Sequence record: MZ501058
Reading direction: 5' to 3' (one strand)
Source: Escherichia phage DaisyDussoix
DNA: 64,000 nucleotides
Shown: piece after piece, positions 40,523 through 55,555 of the stretch
Numbering within the stretch: position 1 is the stretch's first letter
Layout of the letters: every line of letters starts with the position of its first letter
Made by a program: the position numbers and the translations under genes
Notes under the pieces: model-generated
What the model was told of the DNA's origin: nothing
Seen by the model: only the letters and a program-made list of their open reading frames with translations
The model's database searches: none

Positions 40523-41290
40523 TTATTCAGCAGCCGCAGCTTTTGCATCCAGTTTAGCACGCTTAGCGGCACCATCATAGTCCTTAGCAACCAGACCACG
40601 ACGAGACAGCATAGATTTAACACCGCGCTCAGACTTACCAGTTTTCTCAGCGATCTCAGCAACAGTCATGTTAACCAGATCCAGCCCTTCTAACAGATCT
40701 TCACGAGTTTTAGCACTTGAAGTTTCCTGTACCGGCATAGCGGCGATACGACCTTCACGAAGCAGGCTCAGAGCTTTACCACGGATCTGCTTGATATTAC
40801 GACCGAAGTGAGCAGCGATAGCTTCAATAGTAGCCCCAGCAACAACCTGATTAACAAAATCAGTTTCTTCATCAGGAGTGAAGGAACGAACAGCGGCAGT
40901 TTTTTCAGTTGGTTTAACAGAAGCGGTCATTTCCAGACTCAGGATCTTACCCTGTACCTGTTTAGCACCGAACTGACCACCAGCCACAGCAGCAGCGATT
41001 TCAGCATAGGTATACTGACCAGCATGAGCGTTCAGGAAATCAACCAGTTCAGCTTCCTGCTCAGGAGTCCACGGGGATTTCTGTACTTCGTTAGCTTTCT
41101 GTACTTCAAAACCTTCTTTACGCAGTTTAGAGCCAACAGAGCGAGCAGTAACATCTTTGCCAGTTTCAGCAGCCAGTTCAGTAGCAATAGCAGCTACTTG
41201 TTCTTGAGAGATTACAGCAACACCCAGAGCAGTGGCTTTTGCTTTCAGAGACTCGGTTACACCTTCTACGTTCCAGTTCAGTTTAGACAT
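40523..41290 (-). CDS. hypothetical protein with repeated HTH-like modules (putative DNA-binding)
   Basis: 255 aa; three internal repeats of a ~25-aa basic motif (VGSKLRKEG / GKALSLLREG / GVKSMLSRRG). Confidence 0.35.
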   Translation of the reverse strand: MSKLNWNVEGVTESLKAKATALGVAVISQEQVAAIATELAAETGKDVTARSVGSKLRKEGFEVQKANEVQKSPWTPEQEAELVDFLNAHAGQYTYAEIAAAVAGGQFGAKQVQGKILSLEMTASVKPTEKTAAVRSFTPDEETDFVNQVVAGATIEAIAAHFGRNIKQIRGKALSLLREGRIAAMPVQETSSAKTREDLLEGLDLVNMTVAEIAEKTGKSERGVKSMLSRRGLVAKDYDGAAKRAKLDAKAAAAE

Positions 41291-42053
41291 TATTATTTTT
41301 CTCCAATAGTTCTTTAATCGACAGGATTTCTATCCCATTCGTTTCGGCTTTCTTATAAGATGAGGAAGAACGTTTTGATTCATCCTCACAGATCAGGTAT
41401 TTGACGTCTTTGGTAACGGATTTCTTAACCGTATATCCTAGACCTTCTAAATAGTTTGTTGCATCCGTTCTATTTGCAAAATCTTGCAAAGATCCGGTAA
41501 TACATACCGCGATTTTATTTGGCTGGGCAACTAAATCATCAGTAACGACGGTTTTAGCTTTCGCACCTTTTGAAAATTTCCACGGTAATTCGATAACATC
41601 CTTGCCTTGTGGGGAATTTAGCCAGGCTTTATAATTTTCTCCAGCCTTGCCGTCAGCCTTCACATCATGGAAGCTAGTGCAATTTTGGGATAATTTCTTT
41701 GCTGCAACCTCTCCGATTAGAGGGATTCCTAAAGAACCGAGAACTGAACCAAAGTCAATGTCTCCGCGAACTTTAGTATTTAATTCGCTAATTAACTTAG
41801 CGGCAACCTTGCTACCCACGGCTCTAACCAAATCTTCTTCGGTTAGGTAAAATAGTTCTGAAATCTTCGTCAGCTCCAGCTTCTCAATAGTTTTTGGGCC
41901 AAAGCCCTTTAACTTCATTTTTGTACAGAAGTTCTCAATTAACTTACTTGATTGCGCTGGACAGTTGGACTTATTCCGACAGAATAATTGTCCGTTGACA
42001 AGATCTAGCTTAGAACCACAAGAGGGACATTGTGTTGGAATTTCGATTTTCAT
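41283..42053 (-). CDS. ligB: NAD-dependent DNA ligase, C-terminal part (Zn finger, HhH, BRCT)
   Basis: Start set to ATG 42053 with AAGGAAG SD; CPSCGSKL...CRNKSNCPAQ zinc finger, HhH GFGPKTIEKL, BRCT-like C-terminus. Confidence 0.85.
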   Translation of the reverse strand: MKIEIPTQCPSCGSKLDLVNGQLFCRNKSNCPAQSSKLIENFCTKMKLKGFGPKTIEKLELTKISELFYLTEEDLVRAVGSKVAAKLISELNTKVRGDIDFGSVLGSLGIPLIGEVAAKKLSQNCTSFHDVKADGKAGENYKAWLNSPQGKDVIELPWKFSKGAKAKTVVTDDLVAQPNKIAVCITGSLQDFANRTDATNYLEGLGYTVKKSVTKDVKYLICEDESKRSSSSYKKAETNGIEILSIKELLEKNNNV

Positions 42054-42083
42054 CAAATTTCTTCCTTATCAATTTATATAAAT

Positions 42084-42257: not shown

Positions 42258-43229
42258 TTAATCGTATACTCGCTCTACTATGCACGGGATTACACCACCA
42301 GCACGAATTACTCGAATCTGGCAACCGATCTCTAGATCAAGAGAGTTAATATAATCAACGTTATTAAGAGTCGCCTTAACAATTGTAGCATCATCAATAA
42401 TTACCGGTTCGAAATAACCAACTGGAGTTACTTTACCAGAAGCCCCTACCTGCCATTCAACTTTAGTAAGAGTTGTAATTTCGCCTTCTTCATCCTCTTT
42501 AATAGCGAATGCTCCACGAGGAAATTTATTAGTCCAGCCTTCACGGAAGAATTTGTTGTTGTCATTAATACGAACAACTTTACCGTCCGTCGGAATCCAT
42601 TTAAAGAAGGAACACACATTAACAACTGTTAAGAAGTTCTCATTCTCTAGCCAAAGCATATCTTTTAAATACGTTTCTGTAATACCTACAGATTCAGCAG
42701 AACACTGGACACCATATGCAACGAAGATTAAACCACCTTCCCCGATACGTTGTACGAAATCATCGCTATCTTTGAGGTTAATAGCACCAGAGGCAAAGTT
42801 ACGTTTATTTTCTACTTCTTTTGTAATTAGAACTTCGCCAGTGATTTGAGTAGGTACTTTTTGGGAAATCTTTTTAGGAATGTTCAGCAATCTTACGTTG
42901 CTTGTGACATCATTCCCTAGAATACCATTACCACGAGTTAGTGCTTGAACAAATTCGCCATTAATATATAACAGAGAAATCGCACAACCATCTAACTTAT
43001 CAGTTTCTACCTGACCTAATGGGTTAAACGGAGGTTTATCTCCACGATTATAATAAACTTTCTGTAAAGAATACATACGATACAGATGTGGAATATCACC
43101 CTTAGGCCCGATCTCTTCTTCTAATGGAAATCTTTTAATCAGACGATCATATTCTTCGTCAGAGATTAAAGACATTCCCTGGTAATATGCCTCTTGACAA
43201 CGTTTAATAAAGTCTTTTACATTATTCAT
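42258..43229 (-). CDS. ligA: NAD-dependent DNA ligase, N-terminal part (adenylation + OB domains)
   Basis: 323 aa; KLDG adenylation motif (ETDKLDGCA), TRGNGILGNDVT; ATG start overlaps upstream ORF. Confidence 0.85.
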   Translation of the reverse strand: MNNVKDFIKRCQEAYYQGMSLISDEEYDRLIKRFPLEEEIGPKGDIPHLYRMYSLQKVYYNRGDKPPFNPLGQVETDKLDGCAISLLYINGEFVQALTRGNGILGNDVTSNVRLLNIPKKISQKVPTQITGEVLITKEVENKRNFASGAINLKDSDDFVQRIGEGGLIFVAYGVQCSAESVGITETYLKDMLWLENENFLTVVNVCSFFKWIPTDGKVVRINDNNKFFREGWTNKFPRGAFAIKEDEEGEITTLTKVEWQVGASGKVTPVGYFEPVIIDDATIVKATLNNVDYINSLDLEIGCQIRVIRAGGVIPCIVERVYD

Positions 43230-46632: not shown

Positions 46633-47038
46633 CGCAGTAAGCGTAGGCCATATACCTATTACCTCGTTTTACAACTCCAGTGAATCCGGTAGAATTAGTA
46701 GAACACTTCTTATTCTTTCCATTTTCGGAATAGGTAGCCTTACGTAAATTATCCCACAAGTTGTTTAAACTATCACCGTCTTTATGGTCGATAGTTTTAT
46801 CTCCAGGATCTTCGCCTGTCTTTATAAACCAGATTATTCTATGGGCTAAGTAAGCTGTCCGCTCCCCATTTATCGTAAACTCTAGCTGTCTCCCAGTTTT
46901 CATTTTGGAGCCCGCTACCTTTCCCTTCCTTGGGCCAGATAACCAAATTAAGTCCCCAGTACTTTCGTCATACCTAAGCTTTTCTAGGATAAATGCCATA
47001 GGAGGCATTGGTTTATGCGTCTTCATTAGTTGCTCCAA
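46508..47038 (-). CDS. HNH homing endonuclease with AP2-like domain
   Basis: 176 aa; IDHKDGDSLNNLWDNLR (HNH_3) plus TGFTGVVKRGNRYMAYAYCDGKQHIFG (AP2-like). Confidence 0.75.
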   Translation of the reverse strand: MEQLMKTHKPMPPMAFILEKLRYDESTGDLIWLSGPRKGKVAGSKMKTGRQLEFTINGERTAYLAHRIIWFIKTGEDPGDKTIDHKDGDSLNNLWDNLRKATYSENGKNKKCSTNSTGFTGVVKRGNRYMAYAYCDGKQHIFGRRDTPEEAHQLYLRGVKELFGEFNPSERYDSEE

Positions 47039-49799
47039 GTTCGGACAGTACTTCTTCTGCCATAGCCTTCTCTTCCTCTGTCATGAATTTGAAAGGAATT
47101 GGCATACACTCGATTTTACAATAGGTTCTGTACCAGTCTACGATATTTTCAGTGTTCATATCCTTACCAATACCCATCATACCAAGATACATTCTAGCAT
47201 ATTTTGGGTTAGCACTCTGACCTGTTTTAAGGAAGAAGTCTTTCTTCTTACCCTTCAGAGCTTCTATGAATGGTTTAATAGTTACATTTGAACACTTCTT
47301 AATATCTTCCCAGAACATCTCGTGCATCTTATGGAAGAATGCAGCTCGATCATTCGGTTTATCTTTGATATATTGTTCAACATGCTCAACTGTTACATCT
47401 TTAAAAGACTCAAGATGATAATAGCGAACAAGAAGTAGTTTAGCTTCATATGCATCTGCATGACGTGGAGCACAATAATCTGGAGTTGAATGCAGAATAG
47501 CTTTGATTCGCTCTTCCGTATATTCTTTTCCTGCACCTTCGATAGTTCCCCAGCTTTCACTGAAAATATCAATAGTTGCACCCTGATCAAGCAAATAATA
47601 ACGTAAAGTACTAGTATAGTTCCTAGATTCCAGCTCCCTACGACGTGCGTATAATTGCTGTGCTAACTCCAGCCAACCTTCATCAATGTTATATTGCTCA
47701 GAACCTGCGGAGAATCCACTCGTAGATTTATCAATAAAATAATAAATGTTCTGAGCGCCACGGTCGCGCCTGATTGCTTGGAAACGCATGTTTGGCGCTT
47801 GGTTGCTGGTTCTAGTAATAACGAATACGTTATCAAAGTAGTTGAAGTCAACGCCACTTGTTACTGATGGACTACATAATAAGCAATCAATTTGTTGGTC
47901 AATTAGCTCATTAGTTGTGTAATCCAGAATACGTCGAATATCTACATCAGACGTAGAGTTTGAGTGGATTTCCTTAACTAATGCACCAGTATTACGACGC
48001 AGTGCCATACCCTTCTCATTCAGTTCATCCGGGCCACAGTCAGATACTAGGATAGATTTCTCCCCCATCTCTAGCGAAGTCTGAAGTGCAACCCAAATAC
48101 TGGATTCATCCGGGAACTCATAAGCATGAGCTTTTGACAGCATCTTACGGTGGTGATTATAAAATGCAACCGGTTTATCAAACTCAATCAAGGAACCATA
48201 TGCTTCAATTGTTTCTGCACTAATATCACCATCTGATAATATAATGATTTTTGCAGTTGCAAGAATATCCCGAAGAACCTGAATACATTCACGACGCTGT
48301 TTAACAACCGGGGCGAATAATAGGTCATTCATTACAGCATCACATTCATCGATAAAGATTGCATCGATTTGACCAATAAAACTCTTGAACTTATGCAAAG
48401 AGTGAATAGTTGTGGACATACGGTCAATAGCGCCACGCTTAAAATTAAGCATATCTACAGACTTATCATATTGTCCTGCACTAAATTTCTTAGCATTTGA
48501 AGATACCAGTGCTCGAGTATTGGTAATTGCTAAGAAATTACCTTTAATAACTCCTGAATCTAACCAACGCACAACCGCCGTAGTTTTACCTGTACCTAGA
48601 CTTGCTTTTACAAAAGTCATATAACCTTCTGGTGGTACAGTATTTAATTTCAAGAAGTTATCAGTTTCTAGGGAATTAGTTTCTAGCTTTTTAAGTGGAA
48701 TACCTTTTAAAACATCCGGTATATCACGTTTAGAATTATTAACAAACGCTTTCAGAGCCTGTTTACGACCGTTATTAAAGTAATCTTGAATATTACGACT
48801 ATTATCTTTAGTTGCAATGTATTCTGATAAGGCTGGACGGATTTCTTTTTCTAGCCATGCGAAGTCAACACCATCCTCTAAAGCTCTGTGATAAAGTTTA
48901 GGTATGATACGTAGGTACACCCCATCCTCAGCTTCTTCTAGTTCGCTGATAGTTTCCTCTACTTTATCGGAGGCAGCTTTTTTACCTTTAATTTGATCGA
49001 GTAGAGAGTAGAATTCCTCTTTAAACTCTCCTCTAGTTGTTTCATAGTCAACCAGGTTATTAGGTAAATTTACCTTTGAGCCTTTAACAAATACCAGACG
49101 TGAAGCACCCTCCGCTTTAAACGGATCAACTATACCATCAGTAAATAAAGGATCTGCAAAATAGTGGAGCTGTACGGAAGAGTAATAAGCTAAGTCGGCA
49201 ATATCAAAGCCATACTTTTGTCTACTACTTTCGTTGATAGATGTAAATAAGAACTTGATCTGACCCTGCGTAACTTTAACATTAGATTCTAGTATTAAGT
49301 GCATTCGGATACCTGGTTTTAGGCCAGCCGAAGACGATGCATGAGCGATAAACCCTGCATCAAGAGGAAACATATCCTCGCTAATACTATTTAACATCCT
49401 AATAATATGTCGAGCCATGCCAACAAGATCAAACTTGTTACAACCTCCTGTATCTACAATACCATCCACGTCCATTGCAATTATATGACTTGGATTAGAT
49501 ACATTAAAGTTGCCCTTCTTACGTCGCACATTATTTTTGGGTGCAAGACATCGACCTCGTACCGCAACGATATGAGGGTCAGACGTTAAACGTCTCATAA
49601 GAGGGAGCATTTCTACTAGGGTTTGAGGATCAACTTCATCAATTACATCAAACTTGAAGGGCATTGAAGCTGGTTTACCTTCAGGATGCTTTGAGGAAAA
49701 TCTTTTAGCAAAAAGATAGTCTTCTGCTTTAACTTCTCGCCAATTGCCTGTGGCTAAATCGCGATGAAATCCTGCATGACCTTGTAGGATTGAGAACAC
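47013..49799 (-). CDS. large NTPase, putative primase-helicase / replication initiator
   Basis: Start moved to GTG 49799 with AGGAG SD 7 nt upstream; Walker A ASLGTGKTT, Walker B IFIDECD; N-terminal IIAMDVDG resembles AEP primase motif I. Confidence 0.55.
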   Translation of the reverse strand: MFSILQGHAGFHRDLATGNWREVKAEDYLFAKRFSSKHPEGKPASMPFKFDVIDEVDPQTLVEMLPLMRRLTSDPHIVAVRGRCLAPKNNVRRKKGNFNVSNPSHIIAMDVDGIVDTGGCNKFDLVGMARHIIRMLNSISEDMFPLDAGFIAHASSSAGLKPGIRMHLILESNVKVTQGQIKFLFTSINESSRQKYGFDIADLAYYSSVQLHYFADPLFTDGIVDPFKAEGASRLVFVKGSKVNLPNNLVDYETTRGEFKEEFYSLLDQIKGKKAASDKVEETISELEEAEDGVYLRIIPKLYHRALEDGVDFAWLEKEIRPALSEYIATKDNSRNIQDYFNNGRKQALKAFVNNSKRDIPDVLKGIPLKKLETNSLETDNFLKLNTVPPEGYMTFVKASLGTGKTTAVVRWLDSGVIKGNFLAITNTRALVSSNAKKFSAGQYDKSVDMLNFKRGAIDRMSTTIHSLHKFKSFIGQIDAIFIDECDAVMNDLLFAPVVKQRRECIQVLRDILATAKIIILSDGDISAETIEAYGSLIEFDKPVAFYNHHRKMLSKAHAYEFPDESSIWVALQTSLEMGEKSILVSDCGPDELNEKGMALRRNTGALVKEIHSNSTSDVDIRRILDYTTNELIDQQIDCLLCSPSVTSGVDFNYFDNVFVITRTSNQAPNMRFQAIRRDRGAQNIYYFIDKSTSGFSAGSEQYNIDEGWLELAQQLYARRRELESRNYTSTLRYYLLDQGATIDIFSESWGTIEGAGKEYTEERIKAILHSTPDYCAPRHADAYEAKLLLVRYYHLESFKDVTVEHVEQYIKDKPNDRAAFFHKMHEMFWEDIKKCSNVTIKPFIEALKGKKKDFFLKTGQSANPKYARMYLGMMGIGKDMNTENIVDWYRTYCKIECMPIPFKFMTEEEKAMAEEVLSELGATNEDA

Positions 49800-50298
49800 A
49801 ACAATACTCCTGTATTGGAAATGAAATAAGTTTTCTTTAGGACTATTCAGAAAGAATAGAACAACTGTTACTGTCAATTTCTCAACAATTAATCGCAAAT
49901 ACTGAAGGGGGGGTGGCAACTTCCCCTTTCACGCTACACTGCCGCTTCACTATACCGCACAAATCCTTGAGGATGGCCGCTAAGCCAGATTTGCTCACCT
50001 AATGCTTCATGTACTAGCTCATACTAGATGCAGTATACCTTACGTCATCACTTCTCAGAGTTTTTCACTCTTCCCGTCTCACTTCACAACCACCTCACAC
50101 TAGGTTGCTTCGAGGCCTTACCAGGGTTCCTACGGGGTGTAGATCGCTAAGTATTCTATTAACTATTTGTTTAAAAACTAACACGTAACAGTTAAAACAA
50201 CCCTTAATGGGGCAGCCTAACTGTTCCGTATCGCGGATTGTAAACAAGAAAAATTAGCAAAATCAGTTTTTACTAATGTCTCTCAATTCAATATAAAT

Positions 50299-50328
50299 AT
50301 TATAGCAAGATTTTGAGCATCGTGCAAG
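50299..50328 (-). promoter_or_regulatory. sigma70-like promoter driving the long leader of the primase-helicase-like gene
   Basis: TTGCAC -35, ~18-nt spacer, TATAAT -10. Confidence 0.5.
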
Positions 50329-50368
50329 TAAATTTTTAAAGAGAATGCTATCATTGGTCTTGAGTACG

Positions 50369-50395
50369 GATAAAACCGAGCCAAAATGACTCGGT
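50369..50395 (-). terminator. rho-independent terminator (minus strand)
   Basis: ACCGAG / CTCGGT stem followed in transcript sense by UUUUA. Confidence 0.5.
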
Positions 50396-50418: not shown

Positions 50419-50814
50419 TCAATCATCATTTAGGCCTGGGACATAGATTCCAATGCGATTTAATTGACCTTTAGCTTCTTCGAGAATATCTTCGGTGTAC
50501 TCCCAAATATCATCTTCTACTTGCAAAAGATAAGGGGATTCACCAGTTTCGGGGTCACGTGTAATGGCTAAGCCACATGGATGGAATATAGAGAAGTTGA
50601 GGGCAACAATCAAGCCCATGCTGGACAATTCATTCCAGTCAGCTTCCCAACCATCATCTTCATTTTCGTCCACAAAGACACCTACACTAGGGTCTGTTAC
50701 AGAAGTAAACGGAAATGTTACACTAACCTTGTCAACCCCCAACCAACGTGCAAGGAGCCCCTCAGCACGCTCTACCAAACTAGGATCTATCTGACGCCAA
50801 AATACTTGTTCCAT
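50419..50814 (-). CDS. hypothetical protein, paralog 1 of tandem pair
   Basis: 131 aa; shares GV.VD...W.EL..MGL..ALN...F.P...R.TGE.P...PGL with next ORF. Confidence 0.45.
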   Translation of the reverse strand: MEQVFWRQIDPSLVERAEGLLARWLGVDKVSVTFPFTSVTDPSVGVFVDENEDDGWEADWNELSSMGLIVALNFSIFHPCGLAITRDPETGESPYLLQVEDDIWEYTEDILEEAKGQLNRIGIYVPGLNDD

Positions 50815-50823
50815 TCTGCCTCC

Positions 50824-51252
50824 TTAAGCAGTTAAACCTGGGATCATATACCCGAAACGACGAAGTTTCTGAATCCCCTCATTTACTTCCTCGGGCGAAT
50901 ATGACCAGCCCTCACGTTCATTTACCTGGAAAGCAGGAGCTTCACCAGTGCGATAATTTACAATAAGACGGTGATTTGCAGGCATAAACAGCTTATGATT
51001 CAAGGCAAAAACCAGACCCATTTCATCGAGTTCTTTCCAGTCTACAATCTCTTCTACTCCCTCCCCTAAATCCACGCTAACTCCAATACACGGAGCTTCC
51101 TCTAGCGGGCCTTTAAAGGATAAGAAGATATCGTTATTCTCACACCAAATCTTGAGCAGATTGATGGTTTCATTATACATACCATTAGGGAGAGAGCGCC
51201 AGAAGTTGAGAAGCATAGGATTTACCTCTTTCATGAAAATATTATTGAACAT
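50824..51252 (-). CDS. hypothetical protein, paralog 2 of tandem pair
   Basis: 142 aa; collinear similarity to ORF 50419-50814. Confidence 0.45.
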   Translation of the reverse strand: MFNNIFMKEVNPMLLNFWRSLPNGMYNETINLLKIWCENNDIFLSFKGPLEEAPCIGVSVDLGEGVEEIVDWKELDEMGLVFALNHKLFMPANHRLIVNYRTGEAPAFQVNEREGWSYSPEEVNEGIQKLRRFGYMIPGLTA

Positions 51253-51254
51253 GC

Positions 51255-51794
51255 TTATACCTTAAGTTTCTGAAGAGCCTTACACATTTCAAGATCTGGA
51301 CTAAACTCCAGCATATAGCTGATAGCGTTTAAATCTTGAAGGTTTATTCCAGTCCTGCCGTTTACAATAACAGTAGGAAATTGATACATCATAGCACCAG
51401 CATCATCTAGGACACACCAATGCTTGAGCTTATATTTTTCGACAAAACGTAAAACAGAATTACCCCGAGATAAACCACCTCCAGTAAAATCTGTTGTACC
51501 AAGAAAACGATCGATCAAACCGAGTCCGGTCATAATCTGAACGTTCTCCATTTCATTTCGTACAGAAAACCATGAAGATACCCCAACAATCATTATTGGG
51601 GATGGCTTAAGAAAGTTCTGAAAAGCCTGGAGTAATGGCTTGTAAACCCAATCACCACCAAAGAATAGCTTCTCACTATCTGGAGCATGATGGTGAGAGA
51701 TGCTCGAATTGAGCACCCCATCAATATCCAGGAAAATCACAGGAGTATTACTTATTTCCACCAGTAGCATCCCACGTCCAGACTTTAACTTCAT
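51255..51794 (-). CDS. HAD-superfamily hydrolase-like protein (putative phosphatase/nucleotidase)
   Basis: 179 aa; N-terminal FLDIDGVL (DxDG motif I of HAD family); likely start at internal Met ~51770. Confidence 0.5.
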   Translation of the reverse strand: MKLKSGRGMLLVEISNTPVIFLDIDGVLNSSISHHHAPDSEKLFFGGDWVYKPLLQAFQNFLKPSPIMIVGVSSWFSVRNEMENVQIMTGLGLIDRFLGTTDFTGGGLSRGNSVLRFVEKYKLKHWCVLDDAGAMMYQFPTVIVNGRTGINLQDLNAISYMLEFSPDLEMCKALQKLKV

Positions 51795-51933
51795 CAGTAA
51801 AAGGAACTGGAACCTTCAATTCACCTTTACCCCACATAACAGATAGGAACAGAGAATAAATGGTAATCATACCGATTAGGTTGACAAACCATACTAGACC
51901 TTTCCAGATACCCTTAAAAATCTTCTTCACCAT
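51748..51933 (-). CDS. small predicted membrane protein
   Basis: Start set to ATG 51933 with AGGAGG SD; hydrophobic helix GLVWFVNLIGMITIYSLFLSVMW. Confidence 0.35.
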   Translation of the reverse strand: MVKKIFKGIWKGLVWFVNLIGMITIYSLFLSVMWGKGELKVPVPFTDEVKVWTWDATGGNK

Positions 51934-52096
51934 ATTCTCCCTCCTTAATAAGGAACTCTTTCCACTCTGCTGTATCCTCATAGATAACGCAGAAATCATC
52001 ACTCTTCCATGAGAAGTCATCAGTAGCAAATTCGAAACGGTAGCACCAACTACCGTCTGGCCATACTAAAAGATCACACATGCTTTTCTGGGACAT
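51914..52096 (-). CDS. small hypothetical protein
   Basis: Start set to ATG 52096 with GGAGGG SD; ATGA-type overlap with Sir2-like gene end. Confidence 0.3.
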   Translation of the reverse strand: MSQKSMCDLLVWPDGSWCYRFEFATDDFSWKSDDFCVIYEDTAEWKEFLIKEGEYGEEDF

Positions 52097-52925
52097 AAAT
52101 ATTTCCCTCCATAAAAGCTTCAACTTGATCAATAAAGTGTTTATTACCAAAAACTTCGGCAGCTCCAGCACGCCATACAGTAACACCACGTTTCTCATAC
52201 TCAAGCTGTTCGTCATAACGAACTTGTGGGTTAACAACCATCATCTTAGTTCCACGACATACAGCAGGAAATAGCTCCCAGTTGAAGTCGATTACTTGGT
52301 TGCTACAACCTACTACAATAACCATATCATTGCTAGTAAGTGTATCAAACAGGTTAATCTGACCCATATACCACGGAGCCGTCTCACCAAAGAATGTTAC
52401 GTTTGGTTTTACCCATTCGTAATCCTCAGGGGCAATAGCAGTATACCCAACATCTTCGATGATTTGGTTGCGACCCTGACGATAGATCACCTCTTTCAAG
52501 TACCCGTGAGCGTGAATGATTTCATCACGAGGGATACCAGCACGTTCCAGAAGGTCATCAACGTTAGTAGTGAAGTTCTTCACGCTATCCGCACCATAAC
52601 GCTGGAACCATTCTGCAATTCGCAGATGGGCAATGTTAGGCTCAACAGTCTGTAATTCCTGACGACGCATGTTGTAGAACTCATGAGTCTTGAGATACAG
52701 ATCGTTACCATCTTTATCAATGCCAGGGAAACGAGCACTGAAGTAGTTAGGATCATCTTCACCACAGAAGCGACGGAAGCCAGCTTCAAAGTTAGGCAAG
52801 CTACATACTTCCTCTAGATCGTACTCATCCCACAAGGATTTCCCACTAGCAGTATCAGTACGGAAAGCACGAACACCACTATCTACACTCAAACCTGCAC
52901 CACTAACAACGATTAGTCTACGCAT
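52074..52925 (-). CDS. Sir2-family (sirtuin-like) NAD-binding protein
   Basis: 283 aa; GAGLSVDSG, TTNVDDL and HAHG motifs; no CxxC...CxxC zinc-ribbon pairs. Confidence 0.65.
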   Translation of the reverse strand: MRRLIVVSGAGLSVDSGVRAFRTDTASGKSLWDEYDLEEVCSLPNFEAGFRRFCGEDDPNYFSARFPGIDKDGNDLYLKTHEFYNMRRQELQTVEPNIAHLRIAEWFQRYGADSVKNFTTNVDDLLERAGIPRDEIIHAHGYLKEVIYRQGRNQIIEDVGYTAIAPEDYEWVKPNVTFFGETAPWYMGQINLFDTLTSNDMVIVVGCSNQVIDFNWELFPAVCRGTKMMVVNPQVRYDEQLEYEKRGVTVWRAGAAEVFGNKHFIDQVEAFMEGNIYVPEKHV

Positions 52926-53119
52926 TATACGATTCCTTGCTTGAATCCTTCGATGATATTTTGGAGCAGAATTGCTTCTTCTGGGCGAACCTTCTCTTGC
53001 TTAATAAGCATATCCAAACCAGCAATACAGGTAGCTACTCCAGCATTATACCCAGCATTCCACTGCTCCATAAGCATATTTTCTAAATTACTTTTTAGAT
53101 TCTGATTCAAGAAGTCCAT
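52925..53119 (-). CDS. small hypothetical protein
   Basis: Start set to ATG 53119 with GGAGG SD; 64 aa; stop overlaps Sir2-like start. Confidence 0.3.
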   Translation of the reverse strand: MDFLNQNLKSNLENMLMEQWNAGYNAGVATCIAGLDMLIKQEKVRPEEAILLQNIIEGFKQGIV

Positions 53120-53291
53120 AAAGTTTTTCCTCCAATTCCATAATACGATTTTCGTAAGAAGCACGCAGCTTCTCGATGGACAAAGCACGAACTGTAACTT
53201 CATCTGAATTGATCGCTAGCTGAGCTAGATCTTCTGTTTCCATACGTCCGTTGTAAATTAAGCGATATTTAAGATGTTTTACGTTTTTCAT
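53088..53291 (-). CDS. small hypothetical protein
   Basis: 67-aa charged ORF; overlaps next gene start. Confidence 0.3.
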   Translation of the reverse strand: MKNVKHLKYRLIYNGRMETEDLAQLAINSDEVTVRALSIEKLRASYENRIMELEEKLYGLLESESKK

Positions 53292-53300
53292 TCTTGTTCC

Positions 53301-53582
53301 TTAGTTCTGTACTGTAAATTCATTCTTATCACAGTGAGCATAATAATACCCATACATACGATAAATTTTCACAGCCTTAGTAGACCCCTTCGATTCTTCA
53401 TAATCAATCCAGAGCCACTTGTCTTTACCTACATAATGTACCCGAAACTTCTTAACTTTCTTATCATTCCATGTTGCAACAACACGACGATAATCAAATC
53501 CGCCCAACCAATCTAGAGCCTTACGTTCTTCACTAGGCTCTCCAAGATGGGAAACATCTACTTTCGGAAGCAATTCGCTCAT
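53301..53582 (-). CDS. hypothetical protein
   Basis: 93 aa; ATG start with GAGAGGAGAAAG SD; first gene after promoter at 53611-53639. Confidence 0.4.
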   Translation of the reverse strand: MSELLPKVDVSHLGEPSEERKALDWLGGFDYRRVVATWNDKKVKKFRVHYVGKDKWLWIDYEESKGSTKAVKIYRMYGYYYAHCDKNEFTVQN

Positions 53583-53610: not shown

Positions 53611-53639
53611 ATTATACATAAGTTTTAGCTCGAAAGCAA
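53611..53639 (-). promoter_or_regulatory. sigma70-like early promoter
   Basis: TTGCTT -35, 17-nt spacer, TATAAT -10, followed by TGATTTATAAATTTGAGAGGAG. Confidence 0.6.
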
Positions 53640-53641
53640 AT

Positions 53642-53674
53642 AAAATAAAAGCCAGGTCGACTAGCAACCTGGCT
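53642..53674 (-). terminator. rho-independent terminator after nrdD
   Basis: AGCCAGGT / ACCTGGCT stem followed in transcript sense by UUUAUUUU. Confidence 0.6.
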
Positions 53675-53680
53675 GATTCA

Positions 53681-55555
53681 TTATTTAGCGCGAATGTCTT
53701 GATGTTTCACTCGACCCATAACCTCATGTTGTTTACCTGGGTTAAACGGACGAGCACCTGGATTTCCAAGATATCCACAAACTCGACGAGTTACCTCAAG
53801 AGTCTCAGGATCATGATTGCCACAAATTGGGCATTTGAAACCATCCTCAGAAGCTATAGTTTCACCCAAGAACCCACATTCCCCACAAGAGTCTACTGGA
53901 GTATTAATACCGAAGTAATGAACTTTACTTGCAGCATAGTTAATAACCCATTCCAGTGCATCAGGGAATCGTTTCATATCCGGTAATTCCACATAGGAAA
54001 TGCACCCACCAGAAGCAATAGGAGTAAAGTTAGACTCATAATCAAACTTCACATTTGGAGCAACCTTACGTTCTACATCAAGGTGATGGGAATTAGTGTA
54101 ATATCCTTTAGCCAGAATATCTTCATGCTCTGGGAAATACTCACGGTCTAGGCGACAGAAGCGATCACATAGAGATTCAGATGGTGTAGCATACAGACTA
54201 TACCCTAATTGAGTCTCTTCCTTCTTCTGATCAGCACGATCACGCATGTATTGTAGCACACGTTGAACGAACTTGATACAAGACTCAGACATTGTATCTA
54301 CATCTTTACCAAACATGAGCTGCAACATTTCGTGGCAACCAATATATCCTAGAGATACAGAAGCACGCTTGTAGAAATGATCAAATACATATTCATCTGG
54401 CCCCAGACGTAATCCAAAGGCTCCTGACATATAGAGGATGGGCGCAGCTTTAGCTTGAATGTATTTTAAGCGATCAACCCTCCACTCCAATGCTTTTAAC
54501 GCGGTATCCACACGCAGCTCAAGCAGATCGAAGAATAGATCAATATTTCCTTCCGCTTCGATAGCGATTCGAGGAAGGTTTACGGAAACAACGCCTAAGT
54601 TGTTACGACCAGAAGTTTCACCATCTTCCGCAGCAGCCAGGAACGAACGACAGCCCATAGAGACTTTGTAGTCCCCCGTAACTTCTACAACCTTATCATA
54701 ACTGATGTAGTCAGGATACATACGTTCAGCAGTACATTTCATAGCTAACTTCTTGATATCATAGTTAACATCACCAGGTTTCATGTTTACGCCCTCACGC
54801 AAAACAAATACCAGTTTAGGGAAGATAGCTGTACGTTTATTGATACCCAAACCATCCATACGTACTTCTAGTATTGCTTTCTGTACAAGACGTGCTTCCC
54901 AAGAAGTTCCTAGACCAAAACCAAAGGTAATAAACGGACTTTGACCATTAGAGTTGAACATCGTATTGATTTCATACTCCAGGCCCTGACAGGCATCGTA
55001 AACTTCTTTCTCAGTCATTTCCGTAGCCATTACAGATGCTTTAGCTTCATCCTTAGTCCAACGCTTTGCAAACGCATGATTCTTATCATAAGACTTACGA
55101 ACATAAGGAGCCAATACTTCATCTAATCGGTCTACAGAAGTACCCCCATATTGATGTGAACTAACCTGAGTGATAATCTGAGCTGTGATAGCAGCCGCAG
55201 TAGTAATAGAGTTTGGTGTACTGATTTCAGCATTACCAACCTTCATACCATTCTTCAACATATCTTCCAAAGCAACCAGGCAACAGTTAGTCATACCTAA
55301 CGCAGCGTAATCAGCATCATGGAAGTGAATATCACCAATCATGTGAGCATTTCGAATCTGGATGGGCATTTCTTCCAGAATCAGATATTTACTCAATTCC
55401 CCTGCAAGCATATCCCTTTGTGTAGGGAAACGTTCTGAGGGCTTATTGGCATTATTAAACAGCAGCTCTTCATCTGCTGAACCTTCGATAATTTCTTTGC
55501 AGTTTCGAATCAAGGACTGCATTCCTTTATACTTTAGTTCTTCATTGCGATTCAT
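53681..55555 (-). CDS. nrdD: anaerobic ribonucleoside-triphosphate reductase (class III)
   Basis: 624 aa; C-terminal Cys cluster CGECG...CPICG and glycyl-radical motif RVCGYLG; ATG with GGAGG SD. Confidence 0.9.
   Translation of the reverse strand: MNRNEELKYKGMQSLIRNCKEIIEGSADEELLFNNANKPSERFPTQRDMLAGELSKYLILEEMPIQIRNAHMIGDIHFHDADYAALGMTNCCLVALEDMLKNGMKVGNAEISTPNSITTAAAITAQIITQVSSHQYGGTSVDRLDEVLAPYVRKSYDKNHAFAKRWTKDEAKASVMATEMTEKEVYDACQGLEYEINTMFNSNGQSPFITFGFGLGTSWEARLVQKAILEVRMDGLGINKRTAIFPKLVFVLREGVNMKPGDVNYDIKKLAMKCTAERMYPDYISYDKVVEVTGDYKVSMGCRSFLAAAEDGETSGRNNLGVVSVNLPRIAIEAEGNIDLFFDLLELRVDTALKALEWRVDRLKYIQAKAAPILYMSGAFGLRLGPDEYVFDHFYKRASVSLGYIGCHEMLQLMFGKDVDTMSESCIKFVQRVLQYMRDRADQKKEETQLGYSLYATPSESLCDRFCRLDREYFPEHEDILAKGYYTNSHHLDVERKVAPNVKFDYESNFTPIASGGCISYVELPDMKRFPDALEWVINYAASKVHYFGINTPVDSCGECGFLGETIASEDGFKCPICGNHDPETLEVTRRVCGYLGNPGARPFNPGKQHEVMGRVKHQDIRAK

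Follow-up and report, generated by a model that had tools for sequence, protein, structure and literature searches.

An accessory pair of a zinc-less sirtuin and a capless HAD phosphatase in the early region of a T5-like phage, with a possible role in NAD+-dependent RNA-end healing

A gene neighborhood of T5-like phages that joins a sirtuin to a "Swiss Army Knife" (SAK) HAD phosphatase was described by Iyer, Burroughs, Anantharaman and Aravind (Iyer et al., 2022; PMC9503650, section 3.7.3), and a KptA-like removal of RNA 2′-phosphates was predicted in silico for the phage sirtuin clade in the same study. Standalone phage SAK-HADs had been assigned by the same group to RNA-end dephosphorylation, also as a prediction (2021; PMC7824862), and it is on such prediction that the name of the HAD_SAK_2 family rests (PMC9503650, PMC7824862). 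Zinc-less sirtuins were noted earlier in KVP40-like Vibrio phages, in a study that lists T5 as a carrier too (PMC5107563). Here, we analyze this Sir2-HAD neighborhood in a 64,000-nucleotide (nt) stretch of Escherichia phage DaisyDussoix (sequence record MZ501058; hereafter, the window), in which the two genes lie on the same strand with a spacing of 304 nt. The 3.2 kb around them match those of published Epseptimavirus phages of Salmonella (among them 3-29, fuchur, and Stitch) at 99.7–99.9% identity; the source is, by its sequence, a T5-like phage of this genus (Demerecviridae). The large open reading frame (ORF) in those Epseptimavirus records already bears the label "Sir2-like protein" or "NAD-dependent deacetylase," a Sir2-like label is found in hundreds of records, and a sirtuin is present in 979 phage records, i.e., about a thousand sequenced phages. 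An earlier reading of the window made from its letters alone (the sequence-only reading) had treated these genes as unassigned, which is not fully accurate beside these annotations and the published RNA-repair prediction (PMC9503650). The genes, their pairing and the mechanistic hypothesis have already been published and are therefore not novel. What is added here is that the sirtuin carries a class III signature without a zinc site and is not defense-like, that both enzymes are accessory and recombinationally modular, that the tested phage RNA ligases have no homologue in this phage, and that the HAD family has an alternative link to NARP1.

The sequence-only reading had recognized a sirtuin by its nicotinamide adenine dinucleotide (NAD+)-binding signatures and had found the zinc ribbon of canonical deacetylases to be lacking; both claims stand. 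In the Sir2 ORF, GAGLSVDSG lies at residues 9–17, TTNVDDL at 119–125 and HAHG at 138–141, and the protein matches Pfam SIR2 (PF02146; E = 1.3e-21, 77.7 bits against a gathering cut-off of 24) and PHROG 2162 (E = 2.5e-107). In an alignment of 21 phage homologues that are 55–79% identical to the window protein, the residues G9-A-G11, S13, F21, R22, N121, D123, H140, G141, G206, S208, and N232 are invariant, the catalytic His and Asn among them; within the FGE motif, F178/F179 and E181 are invariant and G180 varies. Y84 and R87, which align with FYNARR of CobB and form the class III Tyr-x-x-Arg signature, are invariant as well. With all NAD-binding and NAD-activating residues kept, the alignment marks the sirtuin as catalytically intact. 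The region equivalent to the zinc module (residues 141–181) contains no Cys in the window protein and 0–1 Cys in all 21 family members, so the absence of the CxxC...CxxC ribbon is real and family-wide; a β-hairpin is kept at this position in the AF2 model (pLDDT 86.8).

The best PDB sequence match of the sirtuin is E. coli CobB (1s5p, E = 1.7e-16), and the top Foldseek matches to its model are CobB, followed by Archaeoglobus Sir2-Af1 and SIRT5. The best NCBIfam matches are deacylase families, but at 87.7 bits against a cut-off of 243, and the CobB equivalog scores 71.3 against 320; in the alignment to CobB, N/D213 stands where the V-x-P loop that binds the peptide has its Pro. By motif and fold, the phage sirtuin is assigned to a zinc-less offshoot of the CobB/class III branch, and it resembles the CobB/SIRT5 deacylases, yet is no ordinary CobB. 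The sequence-only reading had drawn an analogy with the Sir2 effectors of NAD-depleting defense systems. This analogy is not supported, since the PADLOC models gave no match (E ≤ 0.1) to any of the nine proteins of the operon and the nearest relatives are the deacylases named above; a defense-type reading of the Sir2 gene was dropped on the result of the PADLOC scan. Defense Sir2 structures are also not within the top 50 structural matches of the sirtuin model.

The phosphatase was likewise correctly named in the sequence-only reading from its motif FLDIDGVL, which lies at residues 21–28 of the maximal ORF (179 amino acids, aa) with an intact DxD. A profile search assigns the protein to Pfam HAD_SAK_2 (PF18143; E = 8.3e-18, 65.5 bits with a cut-off of 27.5), which Pfam describes as "HAD domain in Swiss Army Knife RNA repair proteins", and HAD motifs I–IV (D23xD25, S73/S74, R110, and D130-D131 in the numbering of the maximal ORF) are fully or almost fully conserved among 20 homologues. 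The ATG at 51770, which gives a protein of 171 aa, is more likely to be the start codon than the one at 51794, because it is the annotated start in relatives and the region is homologous to the T5 protein. The structural model (pLDDT 92.3) is that of a minimal, capless (C0) HAD, an architecture that is typical of HADs acting on macromolecules. Its closest structural matches are the protein phosphatases MDP-1, Scp1, and UBLCP1, and the T4 polynucleotide kinase-phosphatase (Pnkp) is also among the matches. PDB sequence matches of the HAD were discarded, being chance matches to His-tag regions only.

Following Iyer et al. (2022), we favor a reading, to which we give a probability of roughly 35%, in which Sir2 and HAD heal RNA ends in an NAD+-dependent manner and host enzymes complete the repair; the substrates of both enzymes we infer. 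The proposed targets would be RNA ends that have been damaged by metal-independent ribonucleases of the host, such as anticodon nucleases. In the first step, the sirtuin would use NAD+ to ADP-ribosylate a terminal phosphate or a 2′-phosphate, which would then be released as an ADP-ribose cyclic phosphate, in a two-step course that resembles that of KptA/Tpt1 and may map onto normal sirtuin chemistry. In the second step, the HAD would strip the remaining 2′/3′ phosphates or dephosphorylate the ADP-ribose-phosphate by-product. Sealing or rebuilding of the CCA end would be left to host enzymes, because neither the tested RNA ligases nor the tested polynucleotide kinase (PNK) have a homologue in the phage. 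Taken at its full strength, this reading would make the phage protein, instead of a protein deacylase, the first sirtuin with a nucleic-acid phosphate as its substrate, namely, an NAD+-dependent remover of RNA 2′- or terminal phosphates, analogous to KptA/Tpt1, that, together with a capless HAD, forms a ligase-independent counter to host tRNA-cleaving defenses, in line with the 2022 in-silico prediction; in this full form we hold it to be possible but less likely than not.

Several observations are consistent with RNA-end healing. In the Vequintavirus Bas53, an operon with the order Rnl1-type RNA ligase, cREC cyclic-phosphate domain, and sirtuin (a clade member with 46% identity; domains by Pfam) has genes for a calcineurin-like phosphoesterase and a divergent P-loop kinase beside it and is located next to six tRNA genes, and in Aeromonas phage PX29 homologues of the HAD and of a DUF7415 protein flank rnlA, with a tRNA nucleotidyltransferase nearby. 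The catalytic residues of the sirtuin and the four HAD motifs are conserved, the adjacency of Sir2 and HAD survives rearrangement within the Demerecviridae, and the HAD shares the lack of a cap with HADs whose substrates are macromolecules and has T4 Pnkp among its structural matches. In SIRT5/CobB, the YxxR motif holds an anionic group, and by analogy the invariant YxxR of the phage protein could equally well bind a phosphate. Furthermore, tRNA is a contested resource for T5-like phages, as close relatives carry about 30 tRNA genes.

A number of findings weigh against RNA-end healing. Genes homologous to those for the Bas53 RNA ligase, PNK, phosphoesterase, and cREC protein and for PX29 RnlA were found neither in the window nor in the full genome of fuchur (99.8% identical) by tblastn at E ≤ 1, and no gene of these kinds is annotated there either, although tblastn may miss remote homologues; an RNA-repair pathway would thus be incomplete in the phage. 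Removal of a 3′-phosphate would hinder the host RtcB. The deacylase hallmarks YxxR and FGE are kept and the closest relative is CobB, and both the sirtuin and the HAD are acidic (isoelectric points of about 4.9 and 5.7), an uncommon property among RNA-end enzymes. Related HADs from about 49 further viral lineages showed no recurrent RNA-repair neighbor. The alleles of Sir2 and HAD assort independently, and in T5-like phages of Klebsiella (e.g., Roth37) the gene order is nrdD, a small ORF, Sir2, a homologue of the small ORF sORF1, and two DUF7415 genes, the HAD being missing. Finally, the literature that we found on sirtuins of T5 and other phages and on the HAD family consists of genome notes and in-silico work and holds no experimental study.

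The conserved hallmarks bear at the same time on a second explanation that is nearly as likely, namely, that the sirtuin is a CobB-like NAD+-dependent lysine deacylase with a class III-type preference for acidic acyl groups (succinyl and malonyl). Produced early, such an enzyme would change how proteins of the host or of the phage are acylated (metabolic enzymes, RNA polymerase, or replication proteins), and the HAD would be functionally unrelated or would be a protein phosphatase. The best sequence and fold matches to CobB, Af1-Sir2 and SIRT5, the deacylase families at the top of the NCBIfam matches, and the invariance of YxxR, FGE, and the catalytic His and Asn agree with deacylation, as do the structural proximity of the HAD to MDP-1, Scp1 and UBLCP1 and the presence of Sir2 without HAD in Klebsiella T5-likes; the same activity has been proposed for the zinc-less Vibrio phage sirtuins (PMC5107563). 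However, the zinc-module cysteines that are used by all characterized deacylase sirtuins are absent, the V-x-P Pro is replaced, the scores of 72–88 bits fall far below the curated CobB cut-offs of 243–320, and deacylation leaves unexplained why the clade recurs in RNA-repair contexts in other phages. We regard deacylation as possible and close behind RNA-end healing.

The two genes were compared across 19 T5-like viral contigs and T5. The Sir2 alleles form two deep classes that are 98–99% and 51–52% identical to the window, and the HAD is conserved at 88–99% identity; the 51–52% allele is that of T5 and of most of the contigs compared, and the window has the Epseptimavirus allele. The Sir2 of the window is 63% identical to those of Klebsiella T5-likes, 61% to that of AAS21, 60% to that of the myovirus Mt1B1_P17, and 59% to that of My1, and only 52% to that of T5, which indicates horizontal exchange. 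Recombination breakpoints lie between Sir2 and the small ORFs that follow it: one contig (L023) combines a divergent Sir2 with identical copies of the small ORFs sORF1 and sORF2, and two others (L021 and L022) show the reverse. In many T5-likes, the small ORFs between Sir2 and HAD are absent or replaced, and in three contigs the stop codon of Sir2 overlaps the start of HAD with no small ORF between them. The T5-like phage DT57C, whose complete genome has been deposited, is left with only a 90-aa chimera of Sir2 residues 197–250 and HAD residues 131–171 (L100, 3468–3740) and has lost the catalytic parts of both enzymes. This pattern of exchange speaks against Sir2 and HAD forming a physical complex that co-evolves and against a place for the small ORFs in a system, and the comparison marks Sir2 and HAD as accessory, separately exchangeable enzymes. 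The description of the locus in the sequence-only reading as a system-like set of genes is accordingly weak, in view of the HAD-less Klebsiella phages, the double loss in DT57C, the variable small ORFs and the independent alleles.

The same data lend themselves to a reading in which Sir2 and HAD have no joint function and simply lie side by side in an accessory island, mosaic in structure, within the early region; the HAD would then be a nucleotidase of the adjacent nucleotide-metabolism cluster (nrdD, nrdAB, frd, and td). The independent variation of the two genes, the small ORFs that come and go between them, and the lack of the HAD in Klebsiella T5-likes (across the collection, 131 Klebsiella phage records have a sirtuin and only three have the HAD) fit this idea, as do the position of the operon between nrdD and the divergent nrdAB-frd-td cluster and the PX29 HAD, which adjoins td and nrdA.1. 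On the other hand, adjacency is kept in three lineages of Demerecviridae, as Sir2-x-x-HAD in the window and T5, Sir2-x-HAD in My1, and HAD-x-Sir2 in AAS21-like phages, and it thus survives a change in gene order in the latter. In addition, the HAD is capless, whereas nucleotidase HADs normally have a cap, and T5-likes encode a dedicated deoxynucleoside monophosphate 5′-phosphatase elsewhere. A lack of any joint function is considered unlikely.

Allele classes are not confined to the two enzymes. Among the T5-like contigs (L020–L038), nrdD (53681–55555) also occurs in two deep classes, with 92–100% and 60–61% identity to the window, and orf64, sORF1 and the DUF7415 genes show allele classes too, in different combinations; orf64 has classes of 100, 89–92, and 34–36% identity, with single loci at 64 and 55%. 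The early region of T5-like phages is, by this comparison, a recombinational mosaic. The remnant in DT57C also touches on annotation. RefSeq records mislabel the intact HAD gene as "Sir2 (NAD-dependent deacetylase)," which gives the impression of two Sir2 genes ("Sir2 x2"). The 92-position profile phrog_18062, which is labeled Sir2, matches the DT57C chimera over its full length (2e-43) and also the intact HAD in its C-terminal half (8.6e-54); it appears to be the source of the "Sir2" label on the HAD, and thus of a propagating annotation artifact.

The wider neighborhoods of the HAD family were surveyed in 79 viral loci with related HADs, in which Sir2 is adjacent only in loci of the Demerecviridae type; the 60 non-Demerecviridae loci contain no Sir2 within 8 kb, which is a further point in favor of the HAD acting independently of the sirtuin. 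BLAST clustering of 506 neighbors of related HADs revealed no recurrent partner, and a Pfam scan of 149 immediate neighbors gave only scattered matches (cREC and PTH2 and Metallophos, two each; NAPRTase and SLOG, one each) with no reliable enrichment.

One of these contexts suggests yet another explanation, in which Sir2 and HAD process small molecules derived from NAD+ or ADP-ribose (ADPR) in an NAD+-centered arms race: the HAD would dephosphorylate ADPR-1″-phosphate (ADPR-1″P), cyclic ADPR-phosphate after ring opening, or nicotinamide mononucleotide, and the sirtuin would have NAD+-like signals as substrates, which it would cleave or exchange. A HAD_SAK_2 homologue with 39% identity is located directly upstream of a Prs-like and an NAPRTase-like gene, the pair that makes up the NAD+ reconstitution pathway NARP1, in Serratia phage ChuuTotoro (L011, 6001–9217) and in a JGI metagenomic contig (L014, 6001–9569); the HAD homologue overlaps or nearly abuts this pair. 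NARP1 operons can recruit an ADPR-1″P phosphatase, in that case a Macro-domain enzyme (2026 preprint, bioRxiv 10.64898/2026.01.28.702374), and this precedent of an accessory phosphatase speaks for a small-molecule substrate. The ChuuTotoro-type HAD may be a counterpart of the Macro-domain ADPR-1″P phosphatase Adpp, and what the informative contexts of the HAD have in common could, by analogy, lie in ADP-ribose phosphates and not in RNA ends. Close relatives also carry NadR-like and PnuC-like genes, a pair that has been described as NARP3 (PMC13464706) and that maps outside the window by colinearity, and the window encodes an NAD+-dependent DNA ligase. However, the HAD-NARP1 arrangement is found in only about three phage records, and because of this rarity the explanation is ranked third. 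Moreover, the published NARP1-associated phosphatase is a Macro-domain enzyme and not a HAD, the lack of a cap is not typical of a HAD specific for small molecules, the sirtuin lacks similarity to Sir2 models of defense and signal processing, and no Macro, Nudix or NARP gene is present among the operon proteins; specifically, none of the nine is of the Adps and Namat, Nampt and Nmnat, or NadR-like and PnuC-like kinds. Overall, a small-molecule role seems improbable. In general terms, a role of the pair in NAD/ADP-ribose metabolism or in counter-defense, as raised in the sequence-only reading, is possible.

The NAD+-dependent DNA ligase of the window is split into an ORF with the adenylation and OB domains (42258–43229) and an ORF with the HhH and BRCT domains (41283–42056). 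Together with the sirtuin, it brings the NAD+-consuming enzymes in this phage to at least two.

The two genes belong to a transcription unit of nine genes (orf93, orf67, orf64, Sir2, sORF1, sORF2, HAD, and two tandem DUF7415 paralogues; Table 1), which is located between nucleotide-metabolism genes (nrdD and the divergent phoH-nrdAB-frd-td cluster) and replication genes, the split DNA ligase among the latter. The early operon of the sequence-only reading is upheld insofar as an equivalent of the T5 early promoter P31, which a strict consensus scan had missed, precedes the unit in a T5-like phage, but the unit, which runs from this promoter (53611–53639) to a terminator at 50370–50395, is larger than was stated. 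The tight packing of the genes that had been noted is evident in the overlaps between the Sir2 stop and sORF1 start (23 nt), sORF1 and sORF2 (20 nt), and sORF2 and HAD (23 nt), in addition to the TAATG shared by orf64 and Sir2. As for the small membrane proteins that had been predicted, sORF2 has a transmembrane-like helix, but sORF1 encodes an acidic, soluble protein. At the position equivalent to that of the terminator that ends the unit, a terminator is annotated in T5; that of Stitch is about 100 nt further downstream.

Table 1. Promoter, genes and terminators of the Sir2-HAD transcription unit, in window coordinates and in the order of transcription.
Feature	Position	Strand	Remarks
Rho-independent terminator after nrdD	53640..53674	-	10-bp G+C-rich stem and T-run; near-identical to annotated T5 terminator
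Early promoter, T5 P31 equivalent	53611..53639	-	TTGCTT-17 nt-TATAAT; near base-for-base alignment with "putative early promoter T5P31" (AY587007)
orf93, first gene of the unit	53301..53582	-	phrog_7953; only in some T5-likes
orf67	53088..53291	-	phrog_5236; 85-100% conserved across T5-likes
orf64	52925..53119	-	phrog_5827; stop overlaps Sir2 ATG (TAATG)
Zinc-less CobB-like (class III-type) sirtuin, 283 aa	52074..52925	-	Pfam SIR2, PHROG 2162, fold matches
sORF1, 60 aa, acidic, soluble, isoelectric point 4.1	51914..52096	-	phrog_5116; 23-nt overlap with Sir2 stop
sORF2, 61 aa, one transmembrane-like helix	51748..51933	-	phrog_11166; Kyte-Doolittle 19-residue maximum 1.93
Capless "Swiss-army-knife" HAD phosphatase (PF18143), 171 aa	51255..51770	-	Maximal ORF to 51794 (179 aa)
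DUF7415 protein a, 142 aa, acidic	50824..51252	-	Pfam DUF7415 9e-37, two repeats
DUF7415 protein b, 131 aa, acidic, tandem paralogue	50419..50814	-	Pfam 1.9e-27
Rho-independent terminator ending the unit	50370..50395	-	Stem ACCGAG...CTCGGT then TTTTAT

The smaller genes of the unit differ in how widely they are kept. Homologues of sORF1 follow Sir2 in T5 (53% identity) and in Klebsiella phage Roth37 (45%; phrog_5116, 2e-25), and sORF1 is missing from some T5-likes; sORF2 is present in only 4 of the 19 T5-like contigs and is not found in T5. DUF7415 protein a is kept downstream of the module in T5, DT57C, Roth37 and My1, and the tandem DUF7415 pair (50419–51252) is retained in T5-likes even where Sir2, HAD or both have been lost. 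In Aeromonas phage PX29, the gene that comes directly after rnlA encodes a single-repeat DUF7415 homologue (L005, 7296–7535).

Beyond the terminator of the operon, a gap of about 570 nt (49803–50370) without a convincing ORF precedes the gene for the replication-origin-binding protein, and the operon and this gap showed nothing notable when scanned for Rfam matches and repeats. The maximal ORF of the origin-binding protein gene (47013–49919) starts from a TTG at 49919; the gene of relatives is 2790 nt long, which would put the start near 49802, and the upstream extension is probably not translated. A promoter-like site (TTGCAC-17-TATAAT) at 50299–50327 would give this gene a long 5′ leader.

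If it is true that the T5-type sirtuin acts on RNA phosphates or on NAD+-derived metabolites, sirtuin chemistry would be extended beyond protein deacylation, and a new player would enter the NAD+-centered and tRNA-centered arms races between phages and their hosts. The locus can be set beside the systems that it most resembles. With the Sir2 NADases of defense systems (ThsA, DSR1/2, Sir2-HerA, and SPARSA), the phage sirtuin shares the superfamily and the substrate NAD+. By contrast, it is a phage-encoded standalone domain of 283 aa without a sensor or partner (SLOG, HerA, or pAgo), and its neighbors are likewise without one. The Sir2/CobB proteins of the KVP40-like Vibrio phages phiSt2 and phiGrn1 have, like the window protein, to which they are about 31% identical, an intact active site without zinc ligands, but they belong to another phage family and have NAD+ salvage genes as neighbors, and deacetylation of host Acs has been proposed for them from modeling (PMC5107563). 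CobB and SIRT5 share with the phage sirtuin the motifs GAGxS...SG(I/V)RxFR, TxNxD, HG, and FGE, the YxxR motif that binds the acyl carboxylate, and the fold (TM 0.82 on target for CobB). They differ in an identity of only about 26–28%, and the phage protein, the product of a phage-encoded early gene, lacks the zinc Cys residues and the substrate-staple Pro of V-x-P, has a variable insertion of 25 residues at about 48–75, and scores far below the CobB cut-offs.

The HAD of the window is distinguished from T4 Pnkp, MDP-1, and Scp1 by an identity of only 10–18%, weak scores, the lack of a kinase domain, and an Arg rather than a Lys as motif III. KptA/Tpt1 carries out the reaction that is proposed for the phage sirtuin, namely, the NAD+-dependent removal of an RNA 2′-phosphate as ADP-ribose 1″-2″ cyclic phosphate, but does so with an ADP-ribosyltransferase (ART) fold, as opposed to the Rossmann fold of sirtuins. 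In both chemistries, an attack on C1″ is followed by an attack by the ribose 2″-OH, and it is by this analogy that the one may be mapped onto the other; we know of no sirtuin with a demonstrated action on nucleic-acid phosphates. The closest described system is the type 3 neighborhood of Iyer et al. (2022), represented by the T5-like Escherichia phage SP15. The neighborhood is the same and the SP15 HAD is 89% identical to that of the window; nothing essential separates the two, and the window is set apart by its Epseptimavirus Sir2 allele and by the two small ORFs between the genes.

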